Below are positions 4,783 through 26,389 of a stretch of DNA of 32,780 nt, one piece after another. How positions within the stretch are numbered: the stretch's first letter is position 1; every line of letters begins with the position of its first letter. The DNA is taken from UHGV virus genome UHGV-0305798. One strand, given 5' to 3'. The notes under the pieces were generated by a model that was not told where the DNA came from, did not search any database, and was given only the letters and a program-made list of their open reading frames with translations. This DNA comes from a virus. The translations under genes were made by a program, and so were the position numbers.

Positions 4783-4793
4783 GCATGGTATTA

Positions 4794-4808
4794 TTACCAC
4801 AACGGTAA
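4794..4808. promoter_or_regulatory. palindromic site TTACC-ACAAC-GGTAA (copy A)
   Basis: Read directly; a half-degenerate second copy (TTACC-ACGGT-GGTTA) follows immediately. Lies 18 bp upstream of the terminase small subunit ATG. Confidence 0.4.
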
Positions 4809-4825
4809 CAATTACCACGGTGGTT

Positions 4826-5422
4826 ATGATGCCTGCTGAACCTAAAACCTATAAACGCAAATCAACGCAATTTAAGCCACTAACAGCAATGCAGGAGGCT
4901 TATTGCCAGTCATACATCAAAACGCCTGAAAACCAGACTCAGGCAGCGATTAACGCAGGATTCTCCCCAAATACAGCGGCAGTTAAAGCCAGTGTCATGA
5001 TGCGCGATGAACGCATTCAAAAACGGATTGCCGAGTTGATGGAGGAGCGCAACAAACGAATGCGCGTCAGTGCTGATTACGTTCTCATGCGCCTGGTGGA
5101 GATCGACCAGATGGACGTGATCGACATCCTCAACGACGATGGGAGCCTTAAACCAATCCGCGAGTGGCCGAAAATCTGGCGCACTACGCTTAGCGGCTTT
5201 GATCTGTCATCGACCATCATGAACATGAACGAGGATTCGATAGAGACAATCCTCAAAAAAATTAAATGGCCTGACAAGGTGAAGAACCTTGAGCTGATTG
5301 GTAAGCATGTTGATGTCAACGCGTTCAAAGAACGCCTGGATGTTAATGTGAATGTGACAATTGCTGATCGCATAGCGGCAGCCAGGAAGAGACTGAAAGA
5401 ACGTCAGGATGGCAATCAGTGA
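4826..5422 (+). CDS. terminase small subunit
   Basis: Contains the TerS-type helix-turn-helix block (LTAMQEAYCQSY...QTQAAINAGFSPNTAAVKAS...IQKRIAELMEER). Start placed at ATG 4826 after GGTGG; the ORF-track start 4748 would add an implausible hydrophobic extension. Overlaps the large subunit start. Confidence 0.8.
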   Translation: MMPAEPKTYKRKSTQFKPLTAMQEAYCQSYIKTPENQTQAAINAGFSPNTAAVKASVMMRDERIQKRIAELMEERNKRMRVSADYVLMRLVEIDQMDVIDILNDDGSLKPIREWPKIWRTTLSGFDLSSTIMNMNEDSIETILKKIKWPDKVKNLELIGKHVDVNAFKERLDVNVNVTIADRIAAARKRLKERQDGNQ

Positions 5423-6894
5423 CAGATACAGCGTTATCTCCTGAAGAGCAGTTGATCGAGGATATTGCAGGGTTCACTCACGATCCGCTTGGCTATGCCC
5501 TCTATGCGTTCCCGTGGGGGGAAGAAGGGACTGAACTGGCACATGCTACCGGCCCACGTCAGTGGCAGGCTGATGCGTTCCGAGAGATACGTGATCACCT
5601 GCAGAATCCAGAGACGCGATATCAGCCGCTTATGCTGGCACGTGCTTCTGGTCACGGTATTGGTAAATCCGCATTCATCTCAATGCTGATCAACTGGGGC
5701 ATGTCCACTTGCGAGGATTGTAAGGTCGTGGTGACCGCCAACACCGACAACCAGCTACGAACGAAGACCTGGCCGGAAATTATCAAGTGGTCAAACCTTG
5801 CTATCACGAAAGACTGGTTTACCTGTACCGCTACCGCGATGTACAGCAATGACCCTGGGCACGACAAGCGGTGGCGAGCTGACGCAATCCCCTGGTCTGA
5901 GCACAACACTGAGGCGTTCGCCGGACTACACAACGAGCGCAAACGCATCATCGTGGTATTCGATGAAGCGTCGAACATTGCGGATCTGGTGTGGGAAGTT
6001 GCTGAGGGTGCGCTTACGGACGAAGACACTGAGATTATCTGGGTAGCGTTCGGAAACCCTACACGTAACACCGGGCGTTTCCGCGAATGTTTCCGCAAAT
6101 ATAAACACCGCTGGAAAACTGCGCAGATTGACAGCCGGACGGTGGAAGGCACTAACAAACAGCAGTTGCAGAAATGGGTTGATGACTACGGGGAAGATAG
6201 CGACTTCGTTAAAATCCGTGTGCGCGGCATATTCCCTGATGCATCTGAATTGCAGTTTATCCCTACCGGTCTTACTGATGAGGCAATGAAACGGGTGGTA
6301 ACCGCTGCGCAGGTTGCACATGCTCCGGTGATAATCGGCGTTGACCCGGCATACTCAGGCGTTGATGACGCGGTGATATACCTGCGGCAGGGGCTGCACA
6401 GTAAGGTGCTATGGACTGGTAACAAGACCACCGACGATCTGATTATGGCGAAGCGTATCGCTGACTTTGAAGACCAGTATCAGGCTGACGCGGTGTTCAT
6501 CGACTTCGGTTACGGAACCGGTTTGAAGTCAATCGGTGATGGCTGGGGACGTACATGGCAACTTGTTCCGTTCGGCGGTGCGTCCACTGACCCGCAGATG
6601 CTTAACAAGCGTGGGGAGATGTTCAACTCATGTAAGACATGGCTGAGGCTGGGCGGCATGCTGGATGACCAGGAAACTGCAGACGACCTGTCAGCGGCAG
6701 AGTACAAAGTTCGTGTGGACGGTAAAATCGTTATCGAACCGAAGGAAGATATCAAGGAGCGGCTTGGGCGTTCGCCGGGTAAAGGCGATGCGCTACTGCT
6801 GACGTTTGCTTTCCCTGTGTCGAAGCGTCTGCGAATTCCTGGGCAGCAGAACCAGCAAGGCAAGGCCATCACAGATTATGACCCGTATGCTTAA
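5419..6894 (+). CDS. terminase large subunit
   Basis: 491 aa with Walker-A-like ATPase motif (ARASGHGIGKS) and C-terminal nuclease-type acidic motifs (VVFDEAS, GVDPAYSG). GTG start at 5419 preceded by AGGATGG. Confidence 0.9.
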   Translation: MTDTALSPEEQLIEDIAGFTHDPLGYALYAFPWGEEGTELAHATGPRQWQADAFREIRDHLQNPETRYQPLMLARASGHGIGKSAFISMLINWGMSTCEDCKVVVTANTDNQLRTKTWPEIIKWSNLAITKDWFTCTATAMYSNDPGHDKRWRADAIPWSEHNTEAFAGLHNERKRIIVVFDEASNIADLVWEVAEGALTDEDTEIIWVAFGNPTRNTGRFRECFRKYKHRWKTAQIDSRTVEGTNKQQLQKWVDDYGEDSDFVKIRVRGIFPDASELQFIPTGLTDEAMKRVVTAAQVAHAPVIIGVDPAYSGVDDAVIYLRQGLHSKVLWTGNKTTDDLIMAKRIADFEDQYQADAVFIDFGYGTGLKSIGDGWGRTWQLVPFGGASTDPQMLNKRGEMFNSCKTWLRLGGMLDDQETADDLSAAEYKVRVDGKIVIEPKEDIKERLGRSPGKGDALLLTFAFPVSKRLRIPGQQNQQGKAITDYDPYA

Positions 6895-6944
6895 TCCGCT
6901 GGTGGGGATAATGTCGTTGATATCCTCTGATGAGGATAAAACAA

Positions 6945-6970
6945 AGCCAGCTCATCGGCTGGCTGTTTGT
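6945..6970. terminator. terminator hairpin after terminase large subunit
   Basis: AGCCAGC-tcatc-GGCTGGCT followed by GTTTGT; a second hairpin (TATCCTC-tgat-GAGGATA) lies just upstream. Sits between convergent genes. Confidence 0.45.
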
Positions 6971-6980
6971 GACATGTCAC
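6969..6980. repeat. 12-bp perfect palindrome GTGACATGTCAC (copy 2)
   Basis: Read directly; identical to 4704..4715, with the same flanking T and G. Confidence 0.6.
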
Positions 6981-6984
6981 GGTG

Positions 6985-7407
6985 TTAGAAGGTTATTTTA
7001 TCGAATGCGGCGTTGATTGCCTTGGCGTCCTGCTCAGCACCAACCACATCAAGTAAAGATCTTTTACTAAGCACTTCAGCCAGGCATTGTAACTTCATGT
7101 TGTATAAGTTTTCGCGCATGTAATCATCATCACTTTTTTCTTTGGCGTATACAGCGCGAGAAATATCAAACACATTGCCTTTTTCCATTTCAGTTTTCTG
7201 CGCTGAAATCCAGTCATGGCAAGTAACTCCTATTCCATGGTCATCGCTAAGCGTTAACCCGGCAAGTCGCTCACCTGGAATTGCTTCACAAAGCATTTCA
7301 TTTCCTGCAAAAACACCATAAAAAATTGAGTCATCACCCTGAACAATGCGTACATATTTGCACGGCCATTCATTTAGATATTTAGCTAGCATGTCGGCTG
7401 TTTTCAT
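6985..7407 (-). CDS. hypothetical protein (140 aa), reverse-strand insert between terminase and portal
   Basis: ATG at 7407 preceded by AAGGTGAG; clean ORF; looks AT-richer than flanking genes by eye; no family recognised. Confidence 0.6.
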   Translation of the reverse strand: MKTADMLAKYLNEWPCKYVRIVQGDDSIFYGVFAGNEMLCEAIPGERLAGLTLSDDHGIGVTCHDWISAQKTEMEKGNVFDISRAVYAKEKSDDDYMRENLYNMKLQCLAEVLSKRSLLDVVGAEQDAKAINAAFDKITF

Positions 7408-7424
7408 GATCTCACCTTAAAAAA

Positions 7425-7448
7425 ATGCCCGGCGAACCGGGCTGTACT
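7425..7448 (-). terminator. rho-independent terminator (minus strand) between tRNA and the 140-aa gene
   Basis: Minus-strand reading GCCCGG-ttcg-CCGGGC followed by ATTTTTTT, immediately upstream of the gene's RBS. Confidence 0.4.
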
Positions 7449-7572
7449 GGTTTACAGCATGAAGTCATCGCAATGGCGTCCTGCTGTAAAAAGGGCGGTG
7501 ATAGTTCTTCAAGGGAAACCATCACCGCCAAGCCCCTGGAACTTCTGGCATCACGGTCCTTAGGCGTGATTC

Positions 7573-7649
7573 TGGCGTGGCATGCAGGATTCGAACCTGC
7601 GACCAACCGCTTAGAAGGCGGTTGCTCTGTCCGACTGAGCTAATGCCAC
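7573..7649 (-). tRNA. tRNA-Arg (anticodon UCU)
   Basis: Minus-strand sequence GTGGCATTAGCTCAGTCGGACAGAGCAACCGCCTTCTAAGCGGTTGGTCGCAGGTTCGAATCCTGCATGCCACGCCA folds as a cloverleaf: 7-bp acceptor stem, D arm, anticodon stem ACCGC/GCGGT with loop CTTCTAA, T loop TTCGAAT, encoded CCA end. Confidence 0.85.
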
Positions 7650-7971
7650 AACGCTGAGAGCACTTAGCCTGTTAAGGCGCCACACTTTGTCGCGGCTCCA
7701 TAAATGCTCTCATCGTTGTACCCTCGTCTCTTCCGAGGCGTCACACCGAATCGCCGGGATGGTGAATCCCCGTGCGCGGAATAAAACCGCTCGACTTGCA
7801 CATTCCGGCTACCTGGTTCGTTTGCCCGAGCAAGGGAGGGTGCCCCTTAAACGTATCCAGACCGCTATCGGCGCATGTGCCATACGCCGTACTGCTCAAA
7901 ATAAAAGCTCACTCCACCTGTTTAATTTAACGACAAGCCAGTCAGGTTAGTAACCAGAATGAGCTCTTTAG

Positions 7972-7986
7972 TTACCTGAAAGGTAA
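7972..7986. promoter_or_regulatory. palindromic site TTACC-TGAAA-GGTAA (copy B)
   Basis: Read directly; about 90 bp upstream of the small ORF and portal operon; 17-mer TTACCTGAAAGGTAATA is identical to copy E. Confidence 0.4.
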
Positions 7987-8076
7987 TAATTCACGCGTTA
8001 AATGTCAACCTTCTACGATAAATAAATCATATGTGGTTAAATTGGTAATAATTTAATTGCGTACGGAGTCATTGAT

Positions 8077-8283
8077 ATGTGCATGGGTAGCTCACCATCA
8101 GTGCCTGCAACACCAGAAGTTCAGGCAGCACCACAGGAGCAGGATGCCGCCGTTGTTGATGCCCGCGACGAAGAAACACGTCGCCGTCGCGCTGCTGCTG
8201 GTCGTAGTTCTACGCTGCTTACCGGTTCTCAGGGCGACACATCAACCGCTAATACCAGCGGTAAAACGCTGCTTGGTCAGTAA
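8077..8283 (+). CDS. small hypothetical protein (68 aa)
   Basis: ATG at 8077 preceded by GGAGTCATTGA, the same 11-nt initiation region that precedes the portal ATG. Low-complexity product; the overlapping frame 8057..8296 is less convincing. Confidence 0.4.
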   Translation: MCMGSSPSVPATPEVQAAPQEQDAAVVDARDEETRRRRAAAGRSSTLLTGSQGDTSTANTSGKTLLGQ

Positions 8284-8297
8284 CCGGAGTCATTGAA

Positions 8298-9977
8298 ATG
8301 GCGGAAACAACTAAAGAGCGATTGAACAAACAGTTCGCACAACTTGAAAGCGAGCGTCAGTCGTTCGAGCCGCACTGGCGCGAGTTGAGTGATTACATCA
8401 ACCCGCGTGGTTCCCGCTTTCTGACTTCTGAGGTCAACCGTAACGATCGACGCAATACACGCATTATTGATTCGACCGGGACTATGGCGGCGCGCACTCT
8501 CGCCAGCGGCATGATGTCAGGCATCACAAGCCCTGCGCGTCCGTGGTTTCGCCTGGCTACGCCAGATCCTGAAATGATGGATTATGGTCCTGTTAAGTTG
8601 TGGCTCGAGGCGGTGCAGAACCGCATGAACGATATGTTCAATAAGTCGAATCTCTACCAGTCTCTTCCGCAGTTATACGGAAGCCTCGGCACATACAGCA
8701 CTGGTGCAATGGCGGTGCTGGAGGATGACGAGGACATCATTCGCACAATGCCATTCCCGATAGGCAGTTACTACCTGGCTAACTCACCTCGTGGCAGTGT
8801 GGACACCTGTTTTCGCAAGTTCTCTATGACTGTTCGTCAGCTTGTTCAGGAGTTCGGGCTAAATAACGTCAGCGAATCCGTAAAAAGCATGTGGGAAAGC
8901 GGCACCTACGAGAAGTGGATTGACGTGATGCATTCGGTTTACCCGAACATTGACCGCGATACATCGAAGCTGGATAGCAAGAACAAGCCATTCAAATCGG
9001 TTTATTACGAGGTTGGTGGCGATAACGACAAGTTGTTGCGTGAGTCCGGATTTGATGAGTTTCCAATTATGGCTCCGCGCTGGGAAGTTAATGGCGAAGA
9101 TGTTTATGGATCATCATGCCCGGGTATGCTGGCGCTTGGACCTGTTAAGGCATTGCAGCTTCTCCAGAAGCGCAAGTCGCAGTTGATTGATAAAGCCACC
9201 AATCCGCCGATGGTTGCTCCGACTTCCCTCAAGAATCAGCGCGCCTCCCTTCTTCCTGGCGACATCACGTATATCGATCAGATTACTGGTCAGGATGGTT
9301 TCAGGCCTGCTTATCTGGTTAACCCCAGTACAGCAGATCTGGTAGCAGACATTCAGGACACTCGTCAAATCATTAACAGCGCCTACTTTGTCGATCTGTT
9401 CATGATGTTGCAGAACATCAATACCCGCTCGATGCCTGTTGAAGCGGTGATCGAAATGAAAGAAGAAAAACTTCTGATGTTGGGGCCGGTTCTGGAGCGT
9501 CTGAACGACGAATGTCTTAACCCTCTCATTGACCGCGCTTTCTCGATGATGGTGCGTAAAAACATGCTGCCGCCACCGCCTGACGCGATGGAAGGTATGC
9601 CCCTGAAGGTCGAATACATTTCCGTCATGGCTCAGGCGCAGAAGTCTATCGGCCTGTCCAGTCTGGCGTCCACGGTTAACTTCATTGGTCAACTTGCGCA
9701 AGCGAAACCAGAAGCTCTCGACAAACTCAACGTTGATCAGGCGATCGATGCATTCGCTGATATGTCCGGAGTGTCTCCAACCGTCATTGTTCCGCAGGAA
9801 CAGGTTGAGCAGGCTCGCCAGCAACGGGCACAGCAACAACAGCAGCAACAAATGATGGCGATGGGGATGGCGGCGGCACAGGGTGCCAAGACGCTAAGCG
9901 AAGCTAAAACTTCGGATCCGAGTGTTTTGTCAGCTATGGCGAATGCAGTTAGTGGTCAGGGTGGGCAATCACAATGA
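8298..9977 (+). CDS. portal (head-to-tail connector) protein, T7 gp8-like
   Basis: 559 aa; position after terminase; Gln/Ala/Met-rich C-terminal tail (QQQQQQMMAMGMAAAQGA) resembles the T7 gp8 C-terminus (recall-based). Confidence 0.8.
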   Translation: MAETTKERLNKQFAQLESERQSFEPHWRELSDYINPRGSRFLTSEVNRNDRRNTRIIDSTGTMAARTLASGMMSGITSPARPWFRLATPDPEMMDYGPVKLWLEAVQNRMNDMFNKSNLYQSLPQLYGSLGTYSTGAMAVLEDDEDIIRTMPFPIGSYYLANSPRGSVDTCFRKFSMTVRQLVQEFGLNNVSESVKSMWESGTYEKWIDVMHSVYPNIDRDTSKLDSKNKPFKSVYYEVGGDNDKLLRESGFDEFPIMAPRWEVNGEDVYGSSCPGMLALGPVKALQLLQKRKSQLIDKATNPPMVAPTSLKNQRASLLPGDITYIDQITGQDGFRPAYLVNPSTADLVADIQDTRQIINSAYFVDLFMMLQNINTRSMPVEAVIEMKEEKLLMLGPVLERLNDECLNPLIDRAFSMMVRKNMLPPPPDAMEGMPLKVEYISVMAQAQKSIGLSSLASTVNFIGQLAQAKPEALDKLNVDQAIDAFADMSGVSPTVIVPQEQVEQARQQRAQQQQQQQMMAMGMAAAQGAKTLSEAKTSDPSVLSAMANAVSGQGGQSQ

Positions 9978-10270
9978 CAGATTACGAAGACGATCAACTG
10001 AAAGAAGAAAACGCCCGTAAGCAACGTGACATGGCACAGCGTGAAATTGATGACATTCGCTTTGTCATGAGCAGTGAACAGGGGCGTCGCGTTGTCTGGT
10101 CGGTGCTGGAGAAAGGCCGTGTGTTTTCCGCTATCTCACCGATGGACGCTATGGCAATGGCATTTAATGAGGGGCAACGCAATCTGGCGCTGGAACTGTT
10201 TCAGCGCGTTATGGCGCATTGCCCTGAACAGTATTTGAAGATGGCCAAAGAGGCCAGTGAACAGGAGTGA
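9974..10270 (+). CDS. hypothetical head-assembly-region protein (98 aa)
   Basis: ATG overlaps portal stop (ATGA); charged helical protein between portal and scaffold. Confidence 0.5.
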   Translation: MTDYEDDQLKEENARKQRDMAQREIDDIRFVMSSEQGRRVVWSVLEKGRVFSAISPMDAMAMAFNEGQRNLALELFQRVMAHCPEQYLKMAKEASEQE

Positions 10271-10272
10271 TC

Positions 10273-10968
10273 ATGAATTTATTTGAGCGTTTGCTGTATA
10301 GCCGTCTTTGCAATGAGCAACCAGTCGATGGTGGAGCAGCTCCGGCTGCGTCAGAACCGTCAGCGCCTGCAGGTGATAACCCTGCTCCAGTTGGTGATCC
10401 ATCACAACAGGAAGGTGATAAGCCACAACCTGTTGCTGATGGCGATAAACCTGCTGATGACAAAAAGCCTGAAAACGATAAGCAGGATGAAAAAAAGGAC
10501 GGCGATAAACCAGAGGGTGCGCCTGAGAAGTACGAGTTTCAGGCTGCCGAAGGCGTAGAGCTGGATACAGAAGCGTTGAAGGAATTCGAGCCGGTGGCGC
10601 GAGAACTTAACCTGACCAACGAGCAAGCGCAAAAGCTGGTTGATGCTTATCCGAAGATTCTGGCAGGTGTTCAGCAGCGCCAGGCAGAAGCCTGGCAGAA
10701 AACAACCGAGCAGTGGGCTGCGGATGTAAAAGCTGACAAAGAAATCGGTGGCGACAAGTTGATTTCTAACCTTAGCGCCGCACAGCGTGCGCTTGACCAG
10801 TTCGGGACACCTGAACTCAAAGAATATCTGAACACCACCGGGCTGGGTAATCACCCTGATCTGGTCAAAACGTTCGTGAAAATCGGAAAGGCGATGTCTG
10901 AAGATGGCATGGTCACCGGTGGTAATGAAGGCCAGCGTAGTGCGGCCGAAGTGCTCTATGGCAAATAA
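10273..10968 (+). CDS. scaffolding protein (putative)
   Basis: Acidic low-complexity N-terminal region (DKP/DDKK repeats) and helical C-terminus, sited between portal and capsid as in T7 gene 9. ATG 10273 follows AGGAG; 10267 is GTG. Confidence 0.65.
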   Translation: MNLFERLLYSRLCNEQPVDGGAAPAASEPSAPAGDNPAPVGDPSQQEGDKPQPVADGDKPADDKKPENDKQDEKKDGDKPEGAPEKYEFQAAEGVELDTEALKEFEPVARELNLTNEQAQKLVDAYPKILAGVQQRQAEAWQKTTEQWAADVKADKEIGGDKLISNLSAAQRALDQFGTPELKEYLNTTGLGNHPDLVKTFVKIGKAMSEDGMVTGGNEGQRSAAEVLYGK

Positions 10969-10976
10969 GAGAGGAA

Positions 10977-11969
10977 ATGACAATGGCTGTTAAAGGCTTA
11001 ACTGCGCTAACGCTGGCTGACTGGGGTAAGCGCGTCGATCCAAACGGGAAAGTCGATAAGATTATCGAGCTTCTCGGTCAAACTAACCCGATCCTTCAGG
11101 ATATGCCTTTTGTCGAAGGGAACCTTCCTACCGGACACCGAACCACCATTCGTTCTGGTTTACCTTCAGCTACCTGGCGTTTGCTGAACTATGGTGTACA
11201 GCCAAGCAAATCAACCACAGTGCAGGTCACCGATTCCGTTGGCATGCTGGAAACCTATGCTGAAGTCGATAAGTCACTGGCTGATCTGAACGGTAATACC
11301 GCCGAATTCCGCCTGTCTGAAGACCGCGCATTTATTGAAGCGATGAATCAGCAGATGGCGCAGACACTGTTTTATGGTGATTCCAGCGTTAACCCTCAGC
11401 AGTTTATGGGACTGTCCTCCCGCTATTCCAGCCTGTCTGCGGGTAATGCTCAGAACATCATTGATGCTGGTGGCACGGGTACAGATAACACCTCAATCTG
11501 GTTAGTGGTGTGGGGCGAAAACACCGTGCATGGCATCTTCCCGAAAGGGCAGAAGGCTGGCATCCAGATGGAAGATAAAGGCCAGGTGACACTGGAAGAT
11601 GCTAATGGCGGCAAGTACGAAGGCTATCGCACCCATTACAAATGGGACAACGGACTTGCTCTGCGTGACTGGCGTTATGTTGTTCGCATTGCAAACATCG
11701 ATGTCAGCAATCTTTCAGAACCTTCCTCTGCCGCAAATATTGCGAAGTTGATGGTTAAAGCACTGCATCGCATTCCAAACCGTGGAATGGGTCGCCCGGT
11801 GTTCTACATGAACCGCACTGTAGGCCAGGCTCTTGATCTGCAATCTCTGGAGAAAACATCTCTGGCGATCAGCGTAAAAGAGACAGAAGGCGAGTGGTGG
11901 ACTTCATTCCGTGGTGTACCAATCCGTGAAACTGATGCGCTTCTGGAAACAGAAGCCCGTGTGGTGTAA
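10977..11969 (+). CDS. major capsid protein (putative)
   Basis: 330 aa immediately after scaffold, preceded by GAGAGGAA; alternative ATG at 10983 has better spacing. Call rests on gene order and size. Confidence 0.7.
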   Translation: MTMAVKGLTALTLADWGKRVDPNGKVDKIIELLGQTNPILQDMPFVEGNLPTGHRTTIRSGLPSATWRLLNYGVQPSKSTTVQVTDSVGMLETYAEVDKSLADLNGNTAEFRLSEDRAFIEAMNQQMAQTLFYGDSSVNPQQFMGLSSRYSSLSAGNAQNIIDAGGTGTDNTSIWLVVWGENTVHGIFPKGQKAGIQMEDKGQVTLEDANGGKYEGYRTHYKWDNGLALRDWRYVVRIANIDVSNLSEPSSAANIAKLMVKALHRIPNRGMGRPVFYMNRTVGQALDLQSLEKTSLAISVKETEGEWWTSFRGVPIRETDALLETEARVV

Positions 11970-12020
11970 CGCCTGTTATTAACCAGTGGGTCGTAACAGA
12001 CCCACTAATGGAGAAAGAAG

Positions 12021-12458
12021 ATGATCACCGACAAACTGTTGATGTTCTCCGAAGCACAGGCGGTAACTGATACCGCGGCTTCTACTGAAGTAATCGATCT
12101 CGGTCCAATTGACGGAAACCGTCGCGATATCGGTGTGGGTTACCCGCTTGAGTTTTGGGCGCTGGTTAACGAAGCCGCCACGGCAAGTGGTGAGGCAACT
12201 GTAAACATCCAGTTGCAGACGAGTGAGAATAACAGCTCATGGTCCACTATTTATGATAGTGGCGCACTGGCAAAGGCCACCCTGACAGCAGGTAAGCGAG
12301 TTGTTTCTGCAAAGGTGCCAGCCGGTGTTCAGCGATATCTGCGTGTTAACTACTCCGTCGCAACTGGCCCACTAACGGCTGGCAAATTCACTGCGGGTAT
12401 CAATCTTGATGTTGATGCCAATACGCCGTATCCGATCCGCTCAAAAGTAACTGGTTAA
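12021..12458 (+). CDS. hypothetical virion protein (145 aa), possibly capsid-associated
   Basis: ATG at 12021 after GGAGAAAG; Ser/Thr/Ala-rich; position after capsid gene. Function not supported beyond location. Confidence 0.45.
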   Translation: MITDKLLMFSEAQAVTDTAASTEVIDLGPIDGNRRDIGVGYPLEFWALVNEAATASGEATVNIQLQTSENNSSWSTIYDSGALAKATLTAGKRVVSAKVPAGVQRYLRVNYSVATGPLTAGKFTAGINLDVDANTPYPIRSKVTG

Positions 12459-12468
12459 GGTGATATTG

Positions 12469-12804
12469 ATGTCAGGTGAGAAACCAAGATACCGCGTTCT
12501 GCGCCTCTCTCATATCCATAACACTCTGTGGCCGGAGGGGGCAGAAATCGAATACGAAGGTGAGCCTGGTAGCGCACTGGAACCTGTTAACGATGCAGCC
12601 AGACAGGCAAAAGCAAAGGTAGCGGGAAAGGTGTCAATGGCAGCAACCAGCACCAAAATCATCAACGATGTGTCAGATGATGGTGAACTGGATAAGCTCC
12701 GTGAAGAGTACGAATTGCTCTTTAACGAGAAGCCACACCATAACGCCAAAGCAGAAACGCTCCGCGAGAAGATCGCAGATAAGCGTAAAGAACTGGGCGT
12801 GTAA
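12469..12804 (+). CDS. hypothetical protein (111 aa)
   Basis: ATG at 12469 preceded by AAGGTGA (12460 is GTG); charged helical C-terminus. Confidence 0.45.
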   Translation: MSGEKPRYRVLRLSHIHNTLWPEGAEIEYEGEPGSALEPVNDAARQAKAKVAGKVSMAATSTKIINDVSDDGELDKLREEYELLFNEKPHHNAKAETLREKIADKRKELGV

Positions 12805-12822
12805 GCCTCGCGAATCAGACAA

Positions 12823-12842: not shown

Positions 12843-12860
12843 GCAGGAGTATAGAAACTT

Positions 12861-19723: not shown

Positions 19724-22700
19724 TGCCGATATATGAACAGGATCCTAAAGAGTTGCTTGGCGAGGATATTCAGCAAATAGCAGCACCTGATGACAGTAAT
19801 TTCTATATGGAAACACCTTCTTTGCTTTCTGCTGTGAACCCATTTACCAGTGAGCAACGCGTTCAAAGGTCTAGACAAGCAGCATTTCGTATAGATAACA
19901 CGCTGGGTAGCTTTATTGCCAGTGCTCCTTTCAGTCAGTTTGACAGGGTTGAAGGATATAACCCATTTGATAACGATGCAGCAGATATTAAAGGCTATGA
20001 AGATTTTGCAGATTCGTTTATCAACTCCGGTTCGCATGAAGAAACAATGGCAATTAAACATCGAATCGATAAGCAAAGAACAGATAGAGAATATCTATCT
20101 GAAATGGGTGGTGCTGGTACTATTTCAAGCTTAGCAATGGGAATGATAGACCCGGTTAATGTGGCTGCAATGTTCATCCCTGTAGGGGCGGTAGCGCGTG
20201 GAGGAAGTATTGCTGAGACGGCAGGGCGTTTTGCCCTGGCGAATGCTGCTGGTGGGGGAGTATCAGAAGCCGCATTACAGGCCACTCAGGAAGCTCGCTC
20301 ACCGATGGAGAGCGTATCGAACGTTGTTGTTGATGCTCTCGTTGGTGGGATCCTTGGTGCTGGTGCACAGCTACTTGCTGGACCTAGCGCGCGCGAGGCA
20401 GTGGTTAACTCAGTAGGTAATCATTTGCGAGGTATGGATTCTCCTCAAAGCATTGGTGCAGCTCAGGTTTTCAATACCACACTCGATCAGGAACAGCTCG
20501 CTGGACTTGGACTTGCTAACAAAACGTTGAGTGTCACTCCTGCTGGCCGCTTGGCGCAATCACCATCTCTTGTCTCCCGTCAGATTAACCAGCAGCTTGC
20601 CGAAAATAACTATTTCTTCGCCAAAAATGATGAGGGGTTGGCTACGTTTACGGCAGTCGAGACTAAGATTAAGCAATACGACGCCATGCTTTATAAGCAG
20701 ATGGAAGCTACTCGTGATGCTTACCAGCAGTACAGCAAATCTGTCAGCGCCCGCGGCGTGAAGAGGATGAACTTTATTGATTTCAATGAAGCTGTTGGCA
20801 TGGCTATGCGCCGTGGTGATCAGAGTGATATTCCTGAGGTTTCACAAGCAGCCGCCAGAATCCGCCCCATTTTTGAGACCACAAAAGCCCGTATGCAGGA
20901 ATTGGGGATCCTTCCTGAGGATATCGATGTCGTGACGGCGAAGAGTTATCTTCCCCGCATTTATAAGTTCGATAAGATACTTTCCGACCGCACTGAATTC
21001 AGAGGGCGAATTGCCAACTGGATACAAGGGATTAGTGCCAAAGGTGCTGACAAAGCAGGTCAGCGAATTGAAAAGATAAATTCATTGCTAAAAACTGCAG
21101 AGGAATCAGCACCGCGCGCTGATGCTCTCGCTAGTGAAATCGCTGAAGCGGAGAAATGGTCTGGTAAAAAAATTCTACTCATGGAAGAACTGGATAAACG
21201 AAATAAGCTTATATCTCAGGAGACTGACACACAGGCGCGTCTTACAAGAATAGAAAAAGAGTTGGCCGAGACTTCATCAGAAAAACTTCAGGCAAGAATG
21301 ATGAAAGAAAGCTCTGACCTTAAAACACGCCTTGATGATATAGCGCAGGCAAAGAGTGAGCTTCCTGTCTATCAGCGCCATATGGAGTTGCTGGATAATC
21401 CACGGAAATATCGTTCTGAGCTTCGCCGACTGCAAAAACGGGCAAATTCAACCACAAGGCTGAATGCAAGCCGCGAGCGAGCACTGAAGCAGATGGAGCC
21501 TCTATCCCGAGAGGAAGCAGAGGACGCTGCTGACGAGATCGTGAATAAAATAATAGGCGCACCTTCCGGGCTTGTACCAGCCGATATTATCCCAGAGAGA
21601 CTCGTTGGTCGGGCTGGTTTCACTAAAAGCAGAACGCTGCTTATTCCTGATGAGCGTATAGAAGATTTTCTTGAATCAGATGTTAACTACATCATGGAAA
21701 GTTATCTCCGGCAGGTGGCACCAGAAATTGAGCTGACTGCGCAGTTTGGCCGTAAAGATATGGGGGAGCAAATCCGTCAGGTTAGTGAGGAATATACCCG
21801 GCTAATAAAAGAGGCTAAAACACCTAAACGACGTGCAGTTCTTGAGAAGCAACGGGAGGCTGATATTAGGGATATTACGGCTATGCGTGATCGACTGCTT
21901 GGTACTTACGGTGCACCTCAAGATCCACGCAGTTTCTTTGTTCGTGCCGGGCGAGTTGCTAGGAATATTAACTTCCTCCGTTTGCTTGGTGGAATGACTG
22001 TCTCCGCTGCAACTGATCTGATGCGACCGATGATGCAGCATGGCCTGAGAAAATCTCTCGGACCAATGGTAAGCATGCTTAAAAATATGGACTCAGTAAA
22101 AATTGCAACCAGGGATTTGCGAGAAATGGCAGTTGGGCTTGATTATGTCCTGTCTACGCGTACAAAGGCTATAGCGGATCTTACTGACCCCTATAGCCGG
22201 AGAAGCGCCGCTGAGCGAGGTCTGAACTGGATGACGCAGAAATTCGGTAACTGGACGCTGATGAATCAGTGGAACAGCGCACTTAAATCATGGTCTGGGA
22301 TGATAGTGCAGTCGAGGATACTTGACGCGGCTCGCCAAGTTTCTGCTGGTGGCACGCTCTCCAAAAGTGAAATGCGGAAGATGGCACAGGTCGGCATCAA
22401 TGAAGATGTTCTGCGCCGAATCGGGGAGCAATTCGGGAAGCACGGAGAGGATATGGACGGGCTGTTAACCGGGCATAGTCATCTGTGGGATGACCGTTTC
22501 GCTAGAGAGATTTTCCAGTCTGCAGTGCTGAAAGATGTAGACTCAGTGATTGTAACGCCTGGCGTAGGTGATACACCGCTGTTTTTTAGTAAAGAAGGCT
22601 GGAAGATGATCACGCAGTTCAAAACGTTTATCTTCGCACAGCATAACAGGGTGCTGGTATCTGGTATCCAGCAGGGCGATGCTGCATTCTATCTTGGTGC

Positions 22701-23112
22701 GCTTGGCACGATTGCGCTTGGCTCAATGGTCTATATGATGAAACAGAAGTTAAGCGGTCGCGATATCGACTACAGCTGGAATAACCTTGTGAAAGAGGGG
22801 ATCGACCGGGGCGGAATGCTTGGCTGGCTCTCTGAGCCGCTGAATACCGTTGAGAACATAAGCGGCGGTAGGTTTGGTCTTGGCGCGATGTTTGGTGCGC
22901 CTCCGGTATCAAGGTTTCAGAGTCGTAATGCTATTGGTGCTTTACTTGGTCCTACCTTTGATCTTGGCGGTGATGCCGCGACGGTTGCAAATGGTGTACT
23001 TAACGGAGAATTTGACAGCCAGCAAACCCACGCTGTCCGTAAAATGCTACCTTTTCAGAATCTGTGGGCGATATCACCATTACTAAATAAAGTTGAAGAG
23101 CAGATGAAATAG
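19723..23112 (+). CDS. internal core/ejection protein D-like (gp16 position), 1129 aa
   Basis: Largest ORF in the module, in the gp16 slot; long charged coiled-coil centre and Gly/Ala-rich hydrophobic segments. No transglycosylase motif recognised. Confidence 0.6.
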   Translation: MPIYEQDPKELLGEDIQQIAAPDDSNFYMETPSLLSAVNPFTSEQRVQRSRQAAFRIDNTLGSFIASAPFSQFDRVEGYNPFDNDAADIKGYEDFADSFINSGSHEETMAIKHRIDKQRTDREYLSEMGGAGTISSLAMGMIDPVNVAAMFIPVGAVARGGSIAETAGRFALANAAGGGVSEAALQATQEARSPMESVSNVVVDALVGGILGAGAQLLAGPSAREAVVNSVGNHLRGMDSPQSIGAAQVFNTTLDQEQLAGLGLANKTLSVTPAGRLAQSPSLVSRQINQQLAENNYFFAKNDEGLATFTAVETKIKQYDAMLYKQMEATRDAYQQYSKSVSARGVKRMNFIDFNEAVGMAMRRGDQSDIPEVSQAAARIRPIFETTKARMQELGILPEDIDVVTAKSYLPRIYKFDKILSDRTEFRGRIANWIQGISAKGADKAGQRIEKINSLLKTAEESAPRADALASEIAEAEKWSGKKILLMEELDKRNKLISQETDTQARLTRIEKELAETSSEKLQARMMKESSDLKTRLDDIAQAKSELPVYQRHMELLDNPRKYRSELRRLQKRANSTTRLNASRERALKQMEPLSREEAEDAADEIVNKIIGAPSGLVPADIIPERLVGRAGFTKSRTLLIPDERIEDFLESDVNYIMESYLRQVAPEIELTAQFGRKDMGEQIRQVSEEYTRLIKEAKTPKRRAVLEKQREADIRDITAMRDRLLGTYGAPQDPRSFFVRAGRVARNINFLRLLGGMTVSAATDLMRPMMQHGLRKSLGPMVSMLKNMDSVKIATRDLREMAVGLDYVLSTRTKAIADLTDPYSRRSAAERGLNWMTQKFGNWTLMNQWNSALKSWSGMIVQSRILDAARQVSAGGTLSKSEMRKMAQVGINEDVLRRIGEQFGKHGEDMDGLLTGHSHLWDDRFAREIFQSAVLKDVDSVIVTPGVGDTPLFFSKEGWKMITQFKTFIFAQHNRVLVSGIQQGDAAFYLGALGTIALGSMVYMMKQKLSGRDIDYSWNNLVKEGIDRGGMLGWLSEPLNTVENISGGRFGLGAMFGAPPVSRFQSRNAIGALLGPTFDLGGDAATVANGVLNGEFDSQQTHAVRKMLPFQNLWAISPLLNKVEEQMK

Positions 23113-23113
23113 G

Positions 23114-23965
23114 ATGAAAAAAATAAATTTGTTTTTTGGCATAGTGCTTTCAATAGTCTCTGTAAATCCTACAGCTGCCAGTTCATTGCAATGCAATAAG
23201 GATAACTTTGATGCATGCAAAACGTGCGAACAATTATCAAAGGCTATCGACTTAAAAGAACCTAATCGTGGCGATTACTATAGAGGGGCTTTATGGAATG
23301 GGCTTTACGCCTCTTATGTAATTAATTGCCCTGTGGTTGCAGAGAAGTTACTGAGCCATGGTGCTATACCATCATATGGCGGATATATGGGGTCTATGGG
23401 GGCGGTTCTGACAGGAAAATGGCCTCATAACAATGAATCAATAAATCTTTCATGGGCAGATTTGCTTATAAAACATGGATTTGATGTTAATAGGCATACG
23501 GGGAATTATAAATCAGCTACTGAAGTATGGGCTATAGATAAAAAACAGATTGAATATAAGTCAGTTTTTGACAAGTTAATTCAATCCAGCGAAGTAAAAC
23601 CACTCGATCCTTCAAGAAATTTAGAATGGTGTGCGTCTGAAGGGTATCGCTCAGTTGTCGTTTATTCCCTTAACTCATGTATAGAAAATGCTATAAAACG
23701 TTTGGATGACGGTGTTTCTTCAGCGTCTGATATTTCATCAGCAGCCGTAAATTCCTGTACTAGCGATGTAGAAAATTTCAATAAGCATTTGGCATGCAAA
23801 GCAGCTGTTAAAGAAAACTCTGATAAAGAGAGAAGCAACGTTTACCAGTTATTAACCAGTGATAGTCAAATGAATAAAAATGTTATTGATATGCTGAAGG
23901 AAAGAAATATTGAAACGGTTCTTGAATTTAGAGCTGAAAATCGATCAGCGAAAACTGCACAGTGA
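23114..23965 (+). CDS. AT-rich secreted protein (283 aa), accessory gene
   Basis: Sec-type signal peptide (MKKINLFFGIVLSIVSVNPTAAS), several Cys, and visibly lower GC than flanking genes (by eye); followed by a strong terminator. Confidence 0.6.
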   Translation: MKKINLFFGIVLSIVSVNPTAASSLQCNKDNFDACKTCEQLSKAIDLKEPNRGDYYRGALWNGLYASYVINCPVVAEKLLSHGAIPSYGGYMGSMGAVLTGKWPHNNESINLSWADLLIKHGFDVNRHTGNYKSATEVWAIDKKQIEYKSVFDKLIQSSEVKPLDPSRNLEWCASEGYRSVVVYSLNSCIENAIKRLDDGVSSASDISSAAVNSCTSDVENFNKHLACKAAVKENSDKERSNVYQLLTSDSQMNKNVIDMLKERNIETVLEFRAENRSAKTAQ

Positions 23966-23971
23966 TCAAAC

Positions 23972-23997
23972 AGGCCGCTTTCGCGGCCTTGTTTTTA
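23972..23997 (+). terminator. rho-independent terminator after the secreted-protein gene
   Basis: GGCCGC-tttc-GCGGCC hairpin followed by TGTTTTT. Confidence 0.55.
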
Positions 23998-24156
23998 ACG
24001 AATGCCACCGCCGCCCGGACGGGAATCCGCAGAACGCCCACCGCAGCGGGAGCCGTCAGCGGCAGTATCGCTGTCGTGCTGACAACGACCGGCAAAGGCC
24101 TGAGTTGAAGCTACCAGAGACAACAAAACGAACAGTGCAGCAAATGCTTTTTTCAT
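23995..24156 (-). CDS. small secreted peptide (53 aa), putative
   Basis: Minus-strand ATG at 24156 gives MKKAFAALFVLLSLVASTQAFA (signal peptide) then a Gly/Arg/Asp-rich mature region with two Cys. Weak RBS; the longer ORF-track start looks spurious. Confidence 0.35.
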   Translation of the reverse strand: MKKAFAALFVLLSLVASTQAFAGRCQHDSDTAADGSRCGGRSADSRPGGGGIR

Positions 24157-24228
24157 TGTGAAATTTCCATCTATAAGCCACCTCAATGTGGCGTCAATGA
24201 GTGTAGCACTGACTTTTGTTTCGTCCAC

Positions 24229-24249
24229 AAAAAAGCCCGCGCTGCGGGC
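24229..24249 (-). terminator. rho-independent terminator (minus strand) after the 210-aa gene
   Basis: Minus-strand GCCCGC-agc-GCGGGC followed by TTTTTT, 5 bp past the stop codon. Confidence 0.5.
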
Positions 24250-24254
24250 TTCTA

Positions 24255-24887
24255 TTAATGCAGTTTATCTTTGCTTATAACCAGTAGTCTGTGGGTATGC
24301 ACATCTTTATCACTGCCCCAACAGAAATCAGCCCACTGGCTATAGAAATCATCCCATGATGTCATGAAGCTAAGAGGTCTATCTTCTTCAGAGCCATCTG
24401 AAACGTATACATTATATCCTGGGGTGTTTATAGCCCAAGAAATCATTCTTTCCCAGAATCTTCTCCCATCGATTGTTTGTTGCTCATCAGATACAACGAT
24501 CGCATATTGCTCTAGGAAGAACTGAAAAAAAATCTGAGGCAAACCATGAACAGCACGGTCATGAATAACATTAGGCGTACGCCATACCATGATCTGCGTA
24601 CATGTTCTTTTGGCTTCGACGATATCTTCCCGAAAGATTAACTTAACCGCATACACCGTTTCTGGAGTATCGCTGGTAGTAATCATTCTGTAATGATCGC
24701 CATTACAAGATTTTACAAGGCGATAACCATAAGGTGTTGTGAATCCCGGAAGAACGAAATCAACCACACCTTTCGCTAAGTAGCTTTCGGTGTGACTAGT
24801 GTTCTTCTCAGACATGTTCAGTTTTCTATCGAAATCTGCTTCTGGGATAATGTATGGCATCGCTTTTCTTGTTGTATTTGTTCTCAT
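24255..24887 (-). CDS. hypothetical protein (210 aa), reverse-strand accessory gene
   Basis: ATG at 24887 preceded by GGGAGG at 5 nt; own terminator downstream and palindromic site upstream; AT-rich by eye; no family recognised. Confidence 0.6.
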   Translation of the reverse strand: MRTNTTRKAMPYIIPEADFDRKLNMSEKNTSHTESYLAKGVVDFVLPGFTTPYGYRLVKSCNGDHYRMITTSDTPETVYAVKLIFREDIVEAKRTCTQIMVWRTPNVIHDRAVHGLPQIFFQFFLEQYAIVVSDEQQTIDGRRFWERMISWAINTPGYNVYVSDGSEEDRPLSFMTSWDDFYSQWADFCWGSDKDVHTHRLLVISKDKLH

Positions 24888-24946
24888 TTCGTCCTCCCAT
24901 GTTTGGCTACAGGACGCGTTTTGAAGGGAAGATTAAAAATGCTTTC

Positions 24947-24961
24947 TTACCCTTGAGGTAA
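24947..24961. promoter_or_regulatory. palindromic site TTACC-CTTGA-GGTAA (copy C)
   Basis: Read directly; about 60 bp upstream of the 210-aa gene start. Confidence 0.4.
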
Positions 24962-24997
24962 TAGTACGCTATTCACCCCCAGTCTGCAATCTGTACA

Positions 24998-25025
24998 GAA
25001 TTATTTAAAGGCACATCCCTGTGCC
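24998..25025 (-). terminator. possible terminator (minus strand) after antirepressor gene
   Basis: Minus-strand GGCAC-agggat-GTGCC followed by TTTAAATAATT; moderate. Confidence 0.35.
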
Positions 25026-25033
25026 GCCGCCCG

Positions 25034-25726
25034 TCAGAAGAACCCTGCCTTGTCGTTGATGTACTCCGCGTGGGTCTGGATATCACGCAGGCATTTGCTC
25101 ACACCAACGATGTAGCAGAACATGGTGGTCAGCTCCGCCGCCGCGCCCGATACGTCGTGCCCGTCTTCCTGTAACTGGTTCAGCAGATTCATCAGCAGTG
25201 AGTTCTCCGTCAGGCCGAGAACACCAGACGGAGAATGAATCAGGCTGCGGTAGCCGGGCTTCAGCGGGGCGCTGTAGGTTTTGTTCTCTATCTTCATTGC
25301 CTGCATCACTGCTGATGCTGTGGCGTTTGCAACCTGGTCGGCAACCATCTTTATGCGTTCTTCCTGCGGGAGCGAGTTTTTAATGTAACTTCCGGTGCGG
25401 CGGATCTGAGGAAGAACCTCACCTGTAACCCATTCAAGAAATCTGAATGCTCTCGTTCCCTCAGTCATTGCCTCTTTGCAACGCAGAATAAGGATGTAGA
25501 GACCTGATTCTGAAACGATGGATAGTTCTTGTATTCCACCAGGGGTCTGTATTGAATACAGCCCCTTTTTGTTCCAGCCTTTTTTATCAAGTTTTCTCGC
25601 TTGTGTAACATCAATATTCAAAGCATTGCACACATCTTTGGTGACAAACCAAGGTTCTCCGTCAATCATGAACATACGGATCTGGCAGGATGACTCAAAG
25701 GAAAAGATGGAAGGTTTGGTATTCAT
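25034..25726 (-). CDS. Bro-N domain antirepressor-like protein
   Basis: N-terminus (MNTKPSIFSFESSCQIRMFMIDGEPWFVTKDVCNALNI) matches the BRO-N signature of phage antirepressors; start at 25726 after AAAGGTGA (the ORF-track start 25771 adds 15 aa). C-terminal 70 aa are paralogous to the small gene at 26040..26297. Confidence 0.75.
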   Translation of the reverse strand: MNTKPSIFSFESSCQIRMFMIDGEPWFVTKDVCNALNIDVTQARKLDKKGWNKKGLYSIQTPGGIQELSIVSESGLYILILRCKEAMTEGTRAFRFLEWVTGEVLPQIRRTGSYIKNSLPQEERIKMVADQVANATASAVMQAMKIENKTYSAPLKPGYRSLIHSPSGVLGLTENSLLMNLLNQLQEDGHDVSGAAAELTTMFCYIVGVSKCLRDIQTHAEYINDKAGFF

Positions 25727-25880
25727 GGCGATCACCTTTGTAGTTAGGTTAATCACCACCGCTGAGACCAATCAGATGGTGGTGAACTGTGCAGAGTTGG
25801 TCTTACCGGCTACAAAGGAACCCGGCGCACCTTTCGGTGCCCCCACACAGCCCACCATAGAATAGGTGCGCTTTACACAT

Positions 25881-25906
25881 AAAAAAACCGCTTATGCGGC
25901 ATATGT
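25881..25906 (-). terminator. possible terminator (minus strand) downstream of the small LexA-box gene
   Basis: Minus-strand GCCGC-ataa-GCGGU followed by seven U; short stem, so moderate. Confidence 0.35.
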
Positions 25907-25993
25907 GCCTCTGTAGTAATCCGGGAGACCAATCCCGGCACTGGATTTTGCCAGTGCCCGATTACTATGGCACAAGAGGAGTGCGATGTAAAT

Positions 25994-26008
25994 TTACCGC
26001 AAAGGTAA
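25994..26008. promoter_or_regulatory. palindromic site TTACC-GCAAA-GGTAA (copy D)
   Basis: Read directly; extended palindrome ATTTACC-GCAAA-GGTAAAT; lies between the antirepressor and the small paralogous gene. Confidence 0.4.
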
Positions 26009-26039
26009 ATATAAGCACTCCATTTGGTAATTGCAAACC

Positions 26040-26297
26040 TTATCTGGTTTGTTTTCGTAATTGTTCGGCACAATAGTCGAGATGTGTTTGCAGATCCTGC
26101 ATAGACATCTGTGAGCTGGTGACGTAGTTAATCAGTGCAGTCAGTTCGGCAAGTGGGCCATCGACATTAAATCCATCCTTATCGAGATCCCGGAGTAATT
26201 TCATCAAGTGCGATCCCTCCACCAGTGACCTGACGCCTCCCGGCGTGTGAATCCTTTCGGTAAATCCGTCTTCCAGTGGATAGTGATACTGCTGCAT
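26040..26297 (-). CDS. small antirepressor-like protein (Tum-like, about 85 aa)
   Basis: About 40% identical by eye to the C-terminal domain of the adjacent antirepressor (shared IH-P-GV, AELT, DxQTHxxY motifs). ATG at 26297 has GGAG at 9 nt; alternative ATG at 26312. A LexA box lies immediately upstream. Confidence 0.6.
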   Translation of the reverse strand: MQQYHYPLEDGFTERIHTPGGVRSLVEGSHLMKLLRDLDKDGFNVDGPLAELTALINYVTSSQMSMQDLQTHLDYCAEQLRKQTR

Positions 26298-26317
26298 CTT
26301 AATCTTCTCCATGCAAT

Positions 26318-26337
26318 AACTGTATATTTATACAGTA
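26318..26337. promoter_or_regulatory. LexA (SOS) box
   Basis: AACTGTATATTTATACAGTA matches the CTGT-N8-ACAG consensus (TACTGTATATATATACAGTA) at 18 of 20 positions; sits just upstream of the small antirepressor-like gene. Confidence 0.7.
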
Positions 26338-26374
26338 TCAAATAATTTGTTTGCTATCCAGCACGTTTTGAAAA

Positions 26375-26389
26375 TTACCTGAAAGGTAA
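26375..26389. promoter_or_regulatory. palindromic site TTACC-TGAAA-GGTAA (copy E)
   Basis: Read directly; about 105 bp upstream of the tailspike ATG and about 40 bp beyond the LexA box; 17-mer identical to copy B. Confidence 0.4.

Follow-up and report, generated by a model that had tools for sequence, protein, structure and literature searches.

The window analysed here, a 32,780-nucleotide stretch of the virus genome UHGV-0305798, carries five copies of a 15-bp palindrome, TTACC-N5-GGTAA (TTACCNNNNNGGTAA), each at an intergenic junction. This dyad, written in full as (a)TTACC-wwWww-GGTAA(t), is most probably the operator of the prophage immunity repressor Rep, a reading to which we assign a probability of roughly 0.85 on comparison with related phages. 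Because the same dyad is annotated at the same junctions in phage epsilon15, the finding is already known, correct but ordinary. The additions made here to that record are modest and consist of two further sites (C and D), the promoter geometry around the dyads, a 62-bp phasing and invariant blocks at the late promoters. The five perfect copies, designated A to E, are located as follows.

4794-4808, plus strand: dyad A, TTACCACAACGGTAA, exact match to TTACCNNNNNGGTAA
7972-7986, no strand assigned: dyad B, TTACCTGAAAGGTAA, exact match to TTACCNNNNNGGTAA
24947-24961, minus strand: dyad C, exact match to TTACCNNNNNGGTAA
25994-26008, minus strand: dyad D, exact match to TTACCNNNNNGGTAA
26375-26389, no strand assigned: dyad E, TTACCTGAAAGGTAA, exact match to TTACCNNNNNGGTAA

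A sequence-only reading of the window had placed five dyads at these coordinates, and a pattern search recovers exactly these five perfect copies. That reading had also described the count as far above chance, and this is borne out by the statistics. No copy appears in 100 dinucleotide-preserving shuffles of the window, and base composition predicts 0.033 copies per window, giving a Poisson probability of about 3e-10 for five or more. All five dyads lie in non-coding DNA, as had been proposed; such DNA makes up 9.4% of the window by our own gene calls (P of about 7e-6). Dyad A belongs to this count: it falls inside a mechanical open reading frame (ORF; 4748-5422) and precedes the conserved start codon of terS, ATG 4829. 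The contexts assigned earlier to the five sites agree with the gene positions at each junction, and dyads B and E do share an identical 17-mer, TTACCTGAAAGGTAATA. Two further copies, matching nine of the ten arm positions, occupy 4812-4826 and 26607-26621. The second lies within the tailspike gene and is probably due to chance.

The window is closest to the genus Uetakevirus, with 97-99% identity to the Escherichia phages EC.W1-9, PAS61, phiV10 and TL-2011b and 76-82% identity to the Salmonella phages epsilon15, SPN1S and SPC32H (megablast). The GenBank record of epsilon15 contains seven protein_bind features labelled 'repressor; lysogeny'.

12-27, 2931-2947, 19895-19911, 32479-32494, 32554-32570, 32616-32632 and 35906-35922 of AY150271.2: repressor features of epsilon15

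These features are situated before terS, before gene 3/portal, before the tailspike gene, at three places left of the repressor gene and at one further right. All seven, 16-17 bp in length, contain TTACC-N5-GGTAA, which the five dyads of the window match exactly. The features at 12-27, 2931-2947 and 19895-19911 are orthologous to A, B and E, respectively, so that the two phages share the dyad at the same three late junctions, along with genus and gene order. The motif, which had not been recognised from the sequence, is thus already on record in a related phage, and of the candidate binders named at that stage the prophage repressor is favoured. Epsilon15 differs in lacking a Bro-N/Ant gene, the isrK and C4 RNAs and the 210-amino-acid (aa) gene found in the window, and sites C and D therefore have no annotated epsilon15 counterpart.

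Exact dyads are found in eight Uetakevirus genomes, with 11 in epsilon15 (seven of which the record lists), 10 in SPC32H, 8 in phiV10, 9 in Tyrion, 11 in EC.W1-9 and 10 each in PAT1, TL-2011b and the Klebsiella phage Kp4865-1. These amount to 79 copies in 327 kb, against one unique copy in 255 kb of control loci, which comprise other phage types, host DNA flanks and distant homologues that match Rep only in the DNA-binding domain. The lone control dyad (loci L030 and L031) adjoins a helix-turn-helix (HTH) gene whose product is unrelated to Rep, and is treated as background. In contrast to what would be expected of a motif equally frequent in coding DNA, about 65 of 69 exact sites in the seven annotated genomes, counted by hand against the annotation tables, are non-coding, as are all five in the window; the rest fall in over-long terS calls or a doubtful small ORF.

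The control loci also bear on whether the dyad is the site of a transcription factor recruited from the enterobacterial host. The half-site is conserved in phages of at least nine host genera, which would fit a conserved host protein. Such a factor is very unlikely, however, because the dyad is nearly absent from the control DNA, host flanks included, and the dyads are found together with the rep gene, clustered around it. No E. coli factor known to us has such a consensus: the sites of CpxR are built as direct repeats, and the 7-2-7 sites of NarL have another spacing. Readings of the dyad or the conserved blocks as sigma-54, IHF, NarL or CpxR sites were dropped by eye against the consensus sequences, as the spacing or orientation did not fit.

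The divergent rep/cro-like gene pair is bordered on each side by two or three dyads in epsilon15, SPC32H, phiV10, Tyrion, EC.W1-9, PAT1, TL-2011b, Kp4865-1 and sibling prophages integrated at the 3' end of guaA. Their centre-to-centre spacings recur across phages at 17-18, 30, 48, 62-63 and 76 bp. A scan with a Rep alignment, covering one genome per species, identified Rep homologues in Klebsiella, Citrobacter (two species), Scandinavium, Erwinia and Superficieibacter. All are flanked by dyads, and each locus carries 62-bp dyad pairs (61 bp in Scandinavium). In all relatives examined, from at least nine enterobacterial genera, the repressor gene has the dyad at its flanks. The dyad is also present at orthologous positions in related prophages, where the sequence-only reading had advised looking for it. 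This bracketing of rep and the epsilon15 annotation support the earlier suggestion of an operator for a phage-encoded regulator of late and accessory units. The distant homologues in Paraburkholderia, Hydrogenovibrio and Thiomicrospira have no dyad nearby and are uninformative, and no dyads are found in the degraded mosaic Sodalis phiSG1. Outside the window, a conserved 9/10 dyad, TTACCTTAAAGGTAT, precedes the integrase gene by about 45-60 bp and adjoins attP/attL (phiV10, L001 26870; L010 1156; other relatives), which hints at Rep control of int as well.

The arms of the dyad are invariant in 76 unique sites, while the spacer is A/T-rich with A or T as the central base in 96%. In alignments of the terS, portal and tailspike regions from seven or eight phages, the arms are unchanged where spacers, flanks and even neighbouring genes change. 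This pattern argues against a function of the dyad at the RNA level, where a small hairpin might serve termination, processing or the control of translation, an explanation that we regard as highly improbable. Each copy can form a stem of 4-5 bp, the imperfect copy at 4812-4826 (A2) overlaps a ribosome-binding site, and the epsilon15 record annotates RNase III sites nearby. However, the constant arms hold no compensatory pairs, which a structure would tolerate. The stems are weak (-2.6 to -3.9 kcal/mol) and are not followed by a U-tract, a terminator scan calls none of the dyads, and several copies are upstream of predicted transcription starts.

Rep, about 194 aa long, belongs to the HTH_XRE proteins and is a homologue of gp38 of epsilon15 and of the SPC32H repressor. 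The Rep of a sibling prophage (L010:6544-7128) aligns over its full length with the SPC32H repressor in PDB 5D50_A (E = 3.5e-42). Eight Reps range from 99% down to 43% identity overall, and yet the sequence NLVNRW and neighbouring HTH positions are invariant. NLVNRW is presumed to be the recognition helix because of its position in the N-terminal helix-turn-helix, and its invariance matches that of the half-site in the 76 unique sites.

The Rep of SPC32H is described as acting as a tetramer on palindromic sites, with the paired DNA-binding domains coming from different dimers, and it is released by the tetrameric antirepressor Ant (PMC9638917; PMC9986798). Its tetramerisation domain is p53-like, a type employed in DNA looping (PMC9638917; PMC9986798). 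The earlier proposal of a dimeric regulator therefore stands in two respects, the phage origin of the protein and the symmetry of its site, but the Rep homologue is described as a tetramer and is encoded outside the window. In vB_EcoP_ZX5, a close relative with a phiV10-type repressor, over-expression of the repressor lowered holin and endolysin transcripts by 99.97-99.99% (PMC9782041). Two features of the window connect it with this system.

26312-26040, minus strand: ant, 90 aa, E = 4e-47 to the SPC32H anti-repressor chain 5D50_E with 83 residues aligned
26320-26335, minus strand: LexA box CTGTATATTTATACAG, perfect CTGT-N8-ACAG by sequence, ant immediately downstream

Ant, by homology the partner that inactivates Rep, is the window's internal link to the Rep system. 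In SPC32H, Rep reportedly stays uncleaved after DNA damage and is inactivated instead by LexA-controlled Ant. The dyad itself was also compared with a LexA box and rejected as one, as the arms and spacing differ and the true box is a separate element.

Judged by its similarities, the window represents the right arm of an epsilon15/phiV10-like prophage of the genus Uetakevirus, which ends at attR.

30937-30953: attR core ATTGAGTGGGAATGATT, match to the core sequence of the family, taken from PMC9782041

The arm begins with early-right accessory genes, a gp49-family gene (4366-4707), a terminator (4757-4774), terS and terL. A minus-strand insert follows, composed of a 140-aa gene and tRNA-Arg (7573-7649), and then come a 68-aa gene, the portal gene and the head and tail genes. 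The last part comprises minus-strand accessory genes, the tailspike gene (26494), the lysis cassette and the attR core. In the siblings, the region left of the part equivalent to the window contains the integrase gene, recombination genes, the gene of a 194-aa HTH repressor and replication genes. The Rep of the window's own prophage is accordingly expected a few kb left of the window start.

Dyad A is located between the terminator and terS. Its orthologue is found in phiV10, EC.W1-9, Tyrion, PAT1, Kp4865-1, the sibling locus L010, epsilon15 and SPC32H. Two elements adjoin it.

4786-4794, plus strand: extended -10 element TGGTATTAT, its last T being the first T of dyad A, downstream of the terminator at 4757-4774
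4812-4826, plus strand: dyad A2, TTACCACGGTGGTTA, 9/10 match, starting 18 bp after A and lying over the terS Shine-Dalgarno sequence GGTGG

The TGnTAYTAT sequence next to dyad A is kept in nine of nine relatives, including Kp4865-1, in which the upstream sequence is unrelated. By this geometry, dyad A is a predicted operator over about -7 to +8 of a candidate promoter for terS and late operon 1. The 18-bp A/A2 pair also occurs in phiV10, epsilon15, Tyrion, EC.W1-9, PAT1 and TL-2011b, and A2 would cover the leader and Shine-Dalgarno sequence of terS.

Dyad B separates the variable minus-strand tRNA/accessory insert from the plus-strand portal operon, of which the 68-aa gene is the first. Its arms are invariant in eight phages, and its spacer and upstream flank vary. 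Promoter-like sequences point away from it in both directions.

7573-7649, minus strand: tRNA-Arg(UCU), in the variable insert with the 140-aa gene
7980-8008, minus strand: leftward promoter-like element, -35 TTGACA at 8008-8003, 17 bp, -10 TACCTT at 7985-7980 inside dyad B
8020-8057, plus strand: candidate portal-operon promoter block AAATAAATCATATGTGGTTAAATTGGTAATAATTTAAT, 38 bp, 34 bp past dyad B and ending 20 bp before the first portal-operon gene

The GTCAA core of the leftward element and its 17-bp distance to TACC are kept in eight of eight phages. The element is directed at tRNA-Arg (7649-7573) and the 140-aa gene. Since the perfect TTGACA is kept in eight phages and directs the element leftward, across dyad B and into the tRNA insert, the tRNA may be controlled by the repressor and expressed in lytic growth only. 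On the rightward side, about 32 bp of the block, from ATCATATG to TTTAA, are identical in eight Uetakeviruses including Kp4865-1, whose portal protein is 60% identical; the first bases of the block differ in Tyrion. A 15-mer with a perfect right arm, TGGTTAAATTGGTAA, begins exactly 62 bp after dyad B, and the same distance separates full dyad pairs elsewhere.

Dyad E occupies the divergent control region between ant and the tailspike gene, beside the LexA box. It is conserved in eight phages, with one mismatch in the phiV10 copy.

26417-26445, plus strand: candidate tailspike promoter block TCCATATATGGTTTTTTGGGTAATAGAAT, -35 TCCATA, 17 bp, -10 TAGAAT, with a GGTAA half-site at 26435-26439 abutting the -10

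The sequence CATATRTGGTT...GGTAATAGAAT of this block is conserved in eight phages, and dyad E is centred near -70 of the candidate promoter. TAGAAA-17-GATATT, which abuts dyad E on the minus strand, was discarded as a promoter for want of conservation in its -35 region. A CATAT-R-TGGTT element, mostly followed 4-5 nt later by a GGTAAT or ATTACC half-site, recurs 26 or 47-59 bp downstream of many dyads. It is present in the window at 8020-8057 and 26417-26445 and in phiV10 (L001) at 24742, 33138 and 35119, and it also occurs inverted inside the spacer of PL. It may serve Rep as a weak half-site, or a different regulator may bind it. Beyond the tailspike gene, the lysis cassette starts after 72 bp (28957-29028), in which there is no dyad and no separate promoter. 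In epsilon15, phiV10, PAT1 and Tyrion, serotype-conversion genes follow the tailspike gene, and a dyad (exact or with one mismatch) and a strong promoter-like element then precede the lysis genes.

Good -35 elements are missing from the late blocks at B and E. This suggests dependence on an activator and raises the question of whether the dyad mainly serves another phage regulator. Two proteins come into consideration. The 76-aa Cro-like protein divergent from rep matches phrog_35, 'transcriptional repressor', and by analogy to lambda should share the operators of the repressor. The gp49-family protein (4366-4707, plus strand) matches phrog_536, 'transcriptional regulator'. Its gene closes the early-right operon, ahead of a terminator and the late operon, in the place that Q has in lambda. 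By eye, this protein has a ribbon-helix-helix-like N terminus and a Cys-rich C terminus. It has no Pfam or NCBIfam match and is a candidate late-gene regulator, which would activate or time the late operons instead of silencing them. This alternative is nonetheless unlikely. The densest and best-ordered dyad clusters bracket the rep/cro-like pair rather than the late genes, and the invariance of the arms is paralleled by the invariant Rep helix. Use of the dyads by Cro is compatible with their being Rep operators. Nothing ties the gp49-family protein to the dyad sequence, and its earlier nomination as a binder, made for this Cys-rich protein, has thus found no specific support.

Among the accessory sites, dyad C is 60 bp upstream of the minus-strand 210-aa gene (24887-24255). 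It is abutted by a weak minus-strand promoter, TTGCAG (24989-24984)-17-TACTAT (24966-24961), which matches the consensus at 7 of 12 positions. TL-2011b has an identical dyad C and promoter side at position 33333, with unrelated genes beyond the outer edge of the dyad.

Dyad D lies between the Bro-N antirepressor gene (25034-25726) and the gene of the 90-aa Ant. A minus-strand pair, TTGCAA (26036-26031)-17-TATATT (26013-26008), precedes it, the last T being the first base of the dyad. One base past the dyad is a second minus-strand pair, TTTACA (25992-25987)-17-CATAGT (25969-25964), which predicts a start at 25957, the 5' end of the isrK match. Dyad D is shared with phiV10, TL-2011b, EC.W1-9, Tyrion and Kp4865-1, and six phages keep its left flank. 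Upstream of the dyad EC.W1-9 differs in sequence, yet a -35/-10 pair again ends on it. The unit downstream consists of three features.

25957-25881, minus strand: isrK Hfq-binding small RNA (sRNA), match at the Rfam gathering threshold
25862-25775, minus strand: C4 antisense RNA (RF01695), match at the Rfam gathering threshold
25726-25034, minus strand: coding sequence of the Bro-N/Ant-fusion antirepressor, Bro-N by Pfam and anti-repressor families in PHROGs

The isrK and C4 matches score 74.7 and 78.6 bits, respectively (Rfam). By these matches, the tandem of isrK and C4 before the Bro-N antirepressor gene is an sRNA-antirepressor module in a Uetakevirus, similar to those of P1 immI and Gifsy-1, and dyad D is its predicted operator. 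The isrK-C4-ant module of the lambdoid phage CP-1639 carries a promoter of its own but no dyad, so the dyad belongs to the Uetakevirus control system rather than to the module. Ant shares 42% identity with the C-terminal 80 residues of the Bro-N protein, consistent with the earlier description of the two as an antirepressor and its small paralogue. The prophage therefore has two Ant-domain proteins, one controlled by LexA (26040-26312) and the other situated behind dyad D and isrK/C4 (25034-25726).

Homology between relatives stops exactly at the outer edge of dyads C and D, and different cargo lies beyond (TL-2011b, L026 33333 and 34385; phiV10, L001 20497). Beyond dyad C, the cargo is the 210-aa orphan in the window and a YafO-type toxin region in TL-2011b. 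In phiV10, the D dyad is the centre of a 41-bp perfect palindrome (L001 20497), which suggests a rearrangement at the operator. These breaks, at C against TL-2011b and at D against TL-2011b or EC.W1-9, would also fit palindromes that mark module boundaries and are kept for recombination between mosaic phages, with no regulatory role. The phiV10 palindrome points in the same direction, as do the variable sequences upstream of A and B, where conservation begins at the dyad. We consider this explanation improbable, since phased dyad clusters surround rep, where no module boundary exists, and the dyads hold fixed distances to -10 and -35 elements. Recombination at a conserved regulatory sequence is moreover an expected by-product of operators that stand at the starts of units.

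If the dyad is the operator of Rep, the repressor in a lysogen would occupy the left and right operators (OL and OR) and every lytic or accessory unit of the right arm. Two modes of action are suggested by the geometry. At A, C, D and the leftward B element, the dyads overlap the -10/+1 region of promoter-like elements, which suggests occlusion: positioned over about -7 to +8, or abutting the -35, bound Rep would exclude RNA polymerase. At rightward B and at E, a full dyad is 70-80 bp upstream of an invariant block with one GGTAAT half-site against the -10. Looping is suggested at these two sites by the combination of distal dyad, proximal half-site and tetrameric repressor, and a Rep tetramer could bridge the strong distal dyad and the weak proximal half-site at the portal and tailspike promoters. 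Upon DNA damage, LexA would leave its box at 26320-26335 and Ant would be made. Ant would then strip Rep off the DNA, so that all units would be freed together.

Several points weigh against assigning the dyads to Rep in this manner. First, the rep gene of the window's own prophage is outside the window, as the siblings carry theirs left of the region spanned by it. The first 622 bp of the window are unlike all sibling prophages recovered, and homology resumes at 622. An HNH-endonuclease-like ORF (160-624) stands there in place of the siblings' DUF1064 gene and its upstream region, including the dyad pair that precedes this gene in relatives. No complete E. coli genome in the searched collection covers the left end of the window. 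Second, the epsilon15 repressor sites are record annotations and, as far as seen, not footprints. A full-text literature search, which did not reach the primary epsilon15 and SPC32H papers, found no paper stating the operator sequence. Third, no heteroimmune relative or variant specificity was found, as the dyad is kept by all Uetakeviruses of the phage collection, even at 60% portal identity, and beside all enterobacterial Rep homologues. Fourth, all promoter assignments are consensus matches, with 7/12 at C and poor -35 elements in the rightward B and E blocks, and looping between a full dyad and a half-site is conjecture. Finally, the Cro-like protein would be expected, by analogy, to use the same dyads, and the repression seen in the ZX5 transcripts could be either direct or indirect (PMC9782041).

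The arrangement can be compared with several known systems. SPC32H (PDB 5D4Z, 5D50) is similar in its Rep and Ant, to which the sibling Rep and the product of the window's ant, a gene with a LexA box, are matched, and in the presence of the same dyads around rep and before terS, the portal gene and the tailspike gene. It differs in the sequence of Rep, the E. coli and Salmonella proteins being only 43% identical, and SPC32H is without a second antirepressor, whereas the window's prophage has the Bro-N/Ant fusion behind isrK and C4.

The C1 repressor of P1 binds many dispersed operators, one per operon, including Op51 of immI, which encodes the c4 antisense RNA, icd and ant. The P1 operator, 17 bases long, is asymmetric and unrelated in sequence, and C1 is not known as an HTH_XRE protein. 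One repressor with scattered operators, and an operon of a C4-type RNA and an antirepressor (here behind dyad D), are common to both systems. In the prophage, however, the site is a perfect dyad and late operons appear to be directly targeted as well. The resemblance is one of working, not of family. The stoperators of mycobacteriophage L5 are asymmetric, lie inside transcription units in one orientation and block elongation. An L5-type role was considered for the dyads and discarded, as these are symmetric, are located in intergenic control regions and overlap or precede promoter elements.

The immunity region resembles that of lambda CI/Cro in its divergent rep/cro-like pair with multiple dyads on both sides and in a PL-like promoter, TTGACA-17-AATTAT, that abuts a dyad. 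Adjacent dyads 17-18 bp apart suggest cooperative occupancy. In lambda, the operators are confined to the immunity region and late genes are reached via N and Q antitermination. Unlike lambda, Uetakeviruses have full operators also at the terminase, portal and tailspike promoters and, in relatives, at the lysis promoters. Rep, moreover, is reportedly inactivated by an antirepressor, whereas CI undergoes RecA-stimulated self-cleavage.

There is also a broader proposal, which we hold only tentatively and put at somewhat below an even chance. Rep would be a genome-wide master repressor that directly gates every lytic unit (early left and right, replication-accessory, terminase, portal/head/tail, tailspike/lysis, tRNA and sRNA-antirepressor) without lambda-style antitermination. 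The late operons would be controlled by bridging of a distal dyad and a weak GGTAAT half-site in conserved promoters (CATATRTGGTT-N5-GGTAAT), in the helical phase given by 62 bp. A second phage factor, possibly the gp49-family protein, may be needed.

As the motif and its assignment are already in the public record, no new question is opened by the finding. Its practical use lies in annotation: in prophages of the phiV10/epsilon15 type, which are often found at guaA in E. coli and related bacteria, the dyads show where the transcription units begin. They may also be of use in engineering phiV10-type reporter phages and in judging which cargo genes a lysogen keeps silent. Probably, a single repressor directly silences the terminase, portal and tailspike operons, tRNA-Arg and the isrK-C4-antirepressor module, and all are freed at the same time via LexA-controlled Ant.

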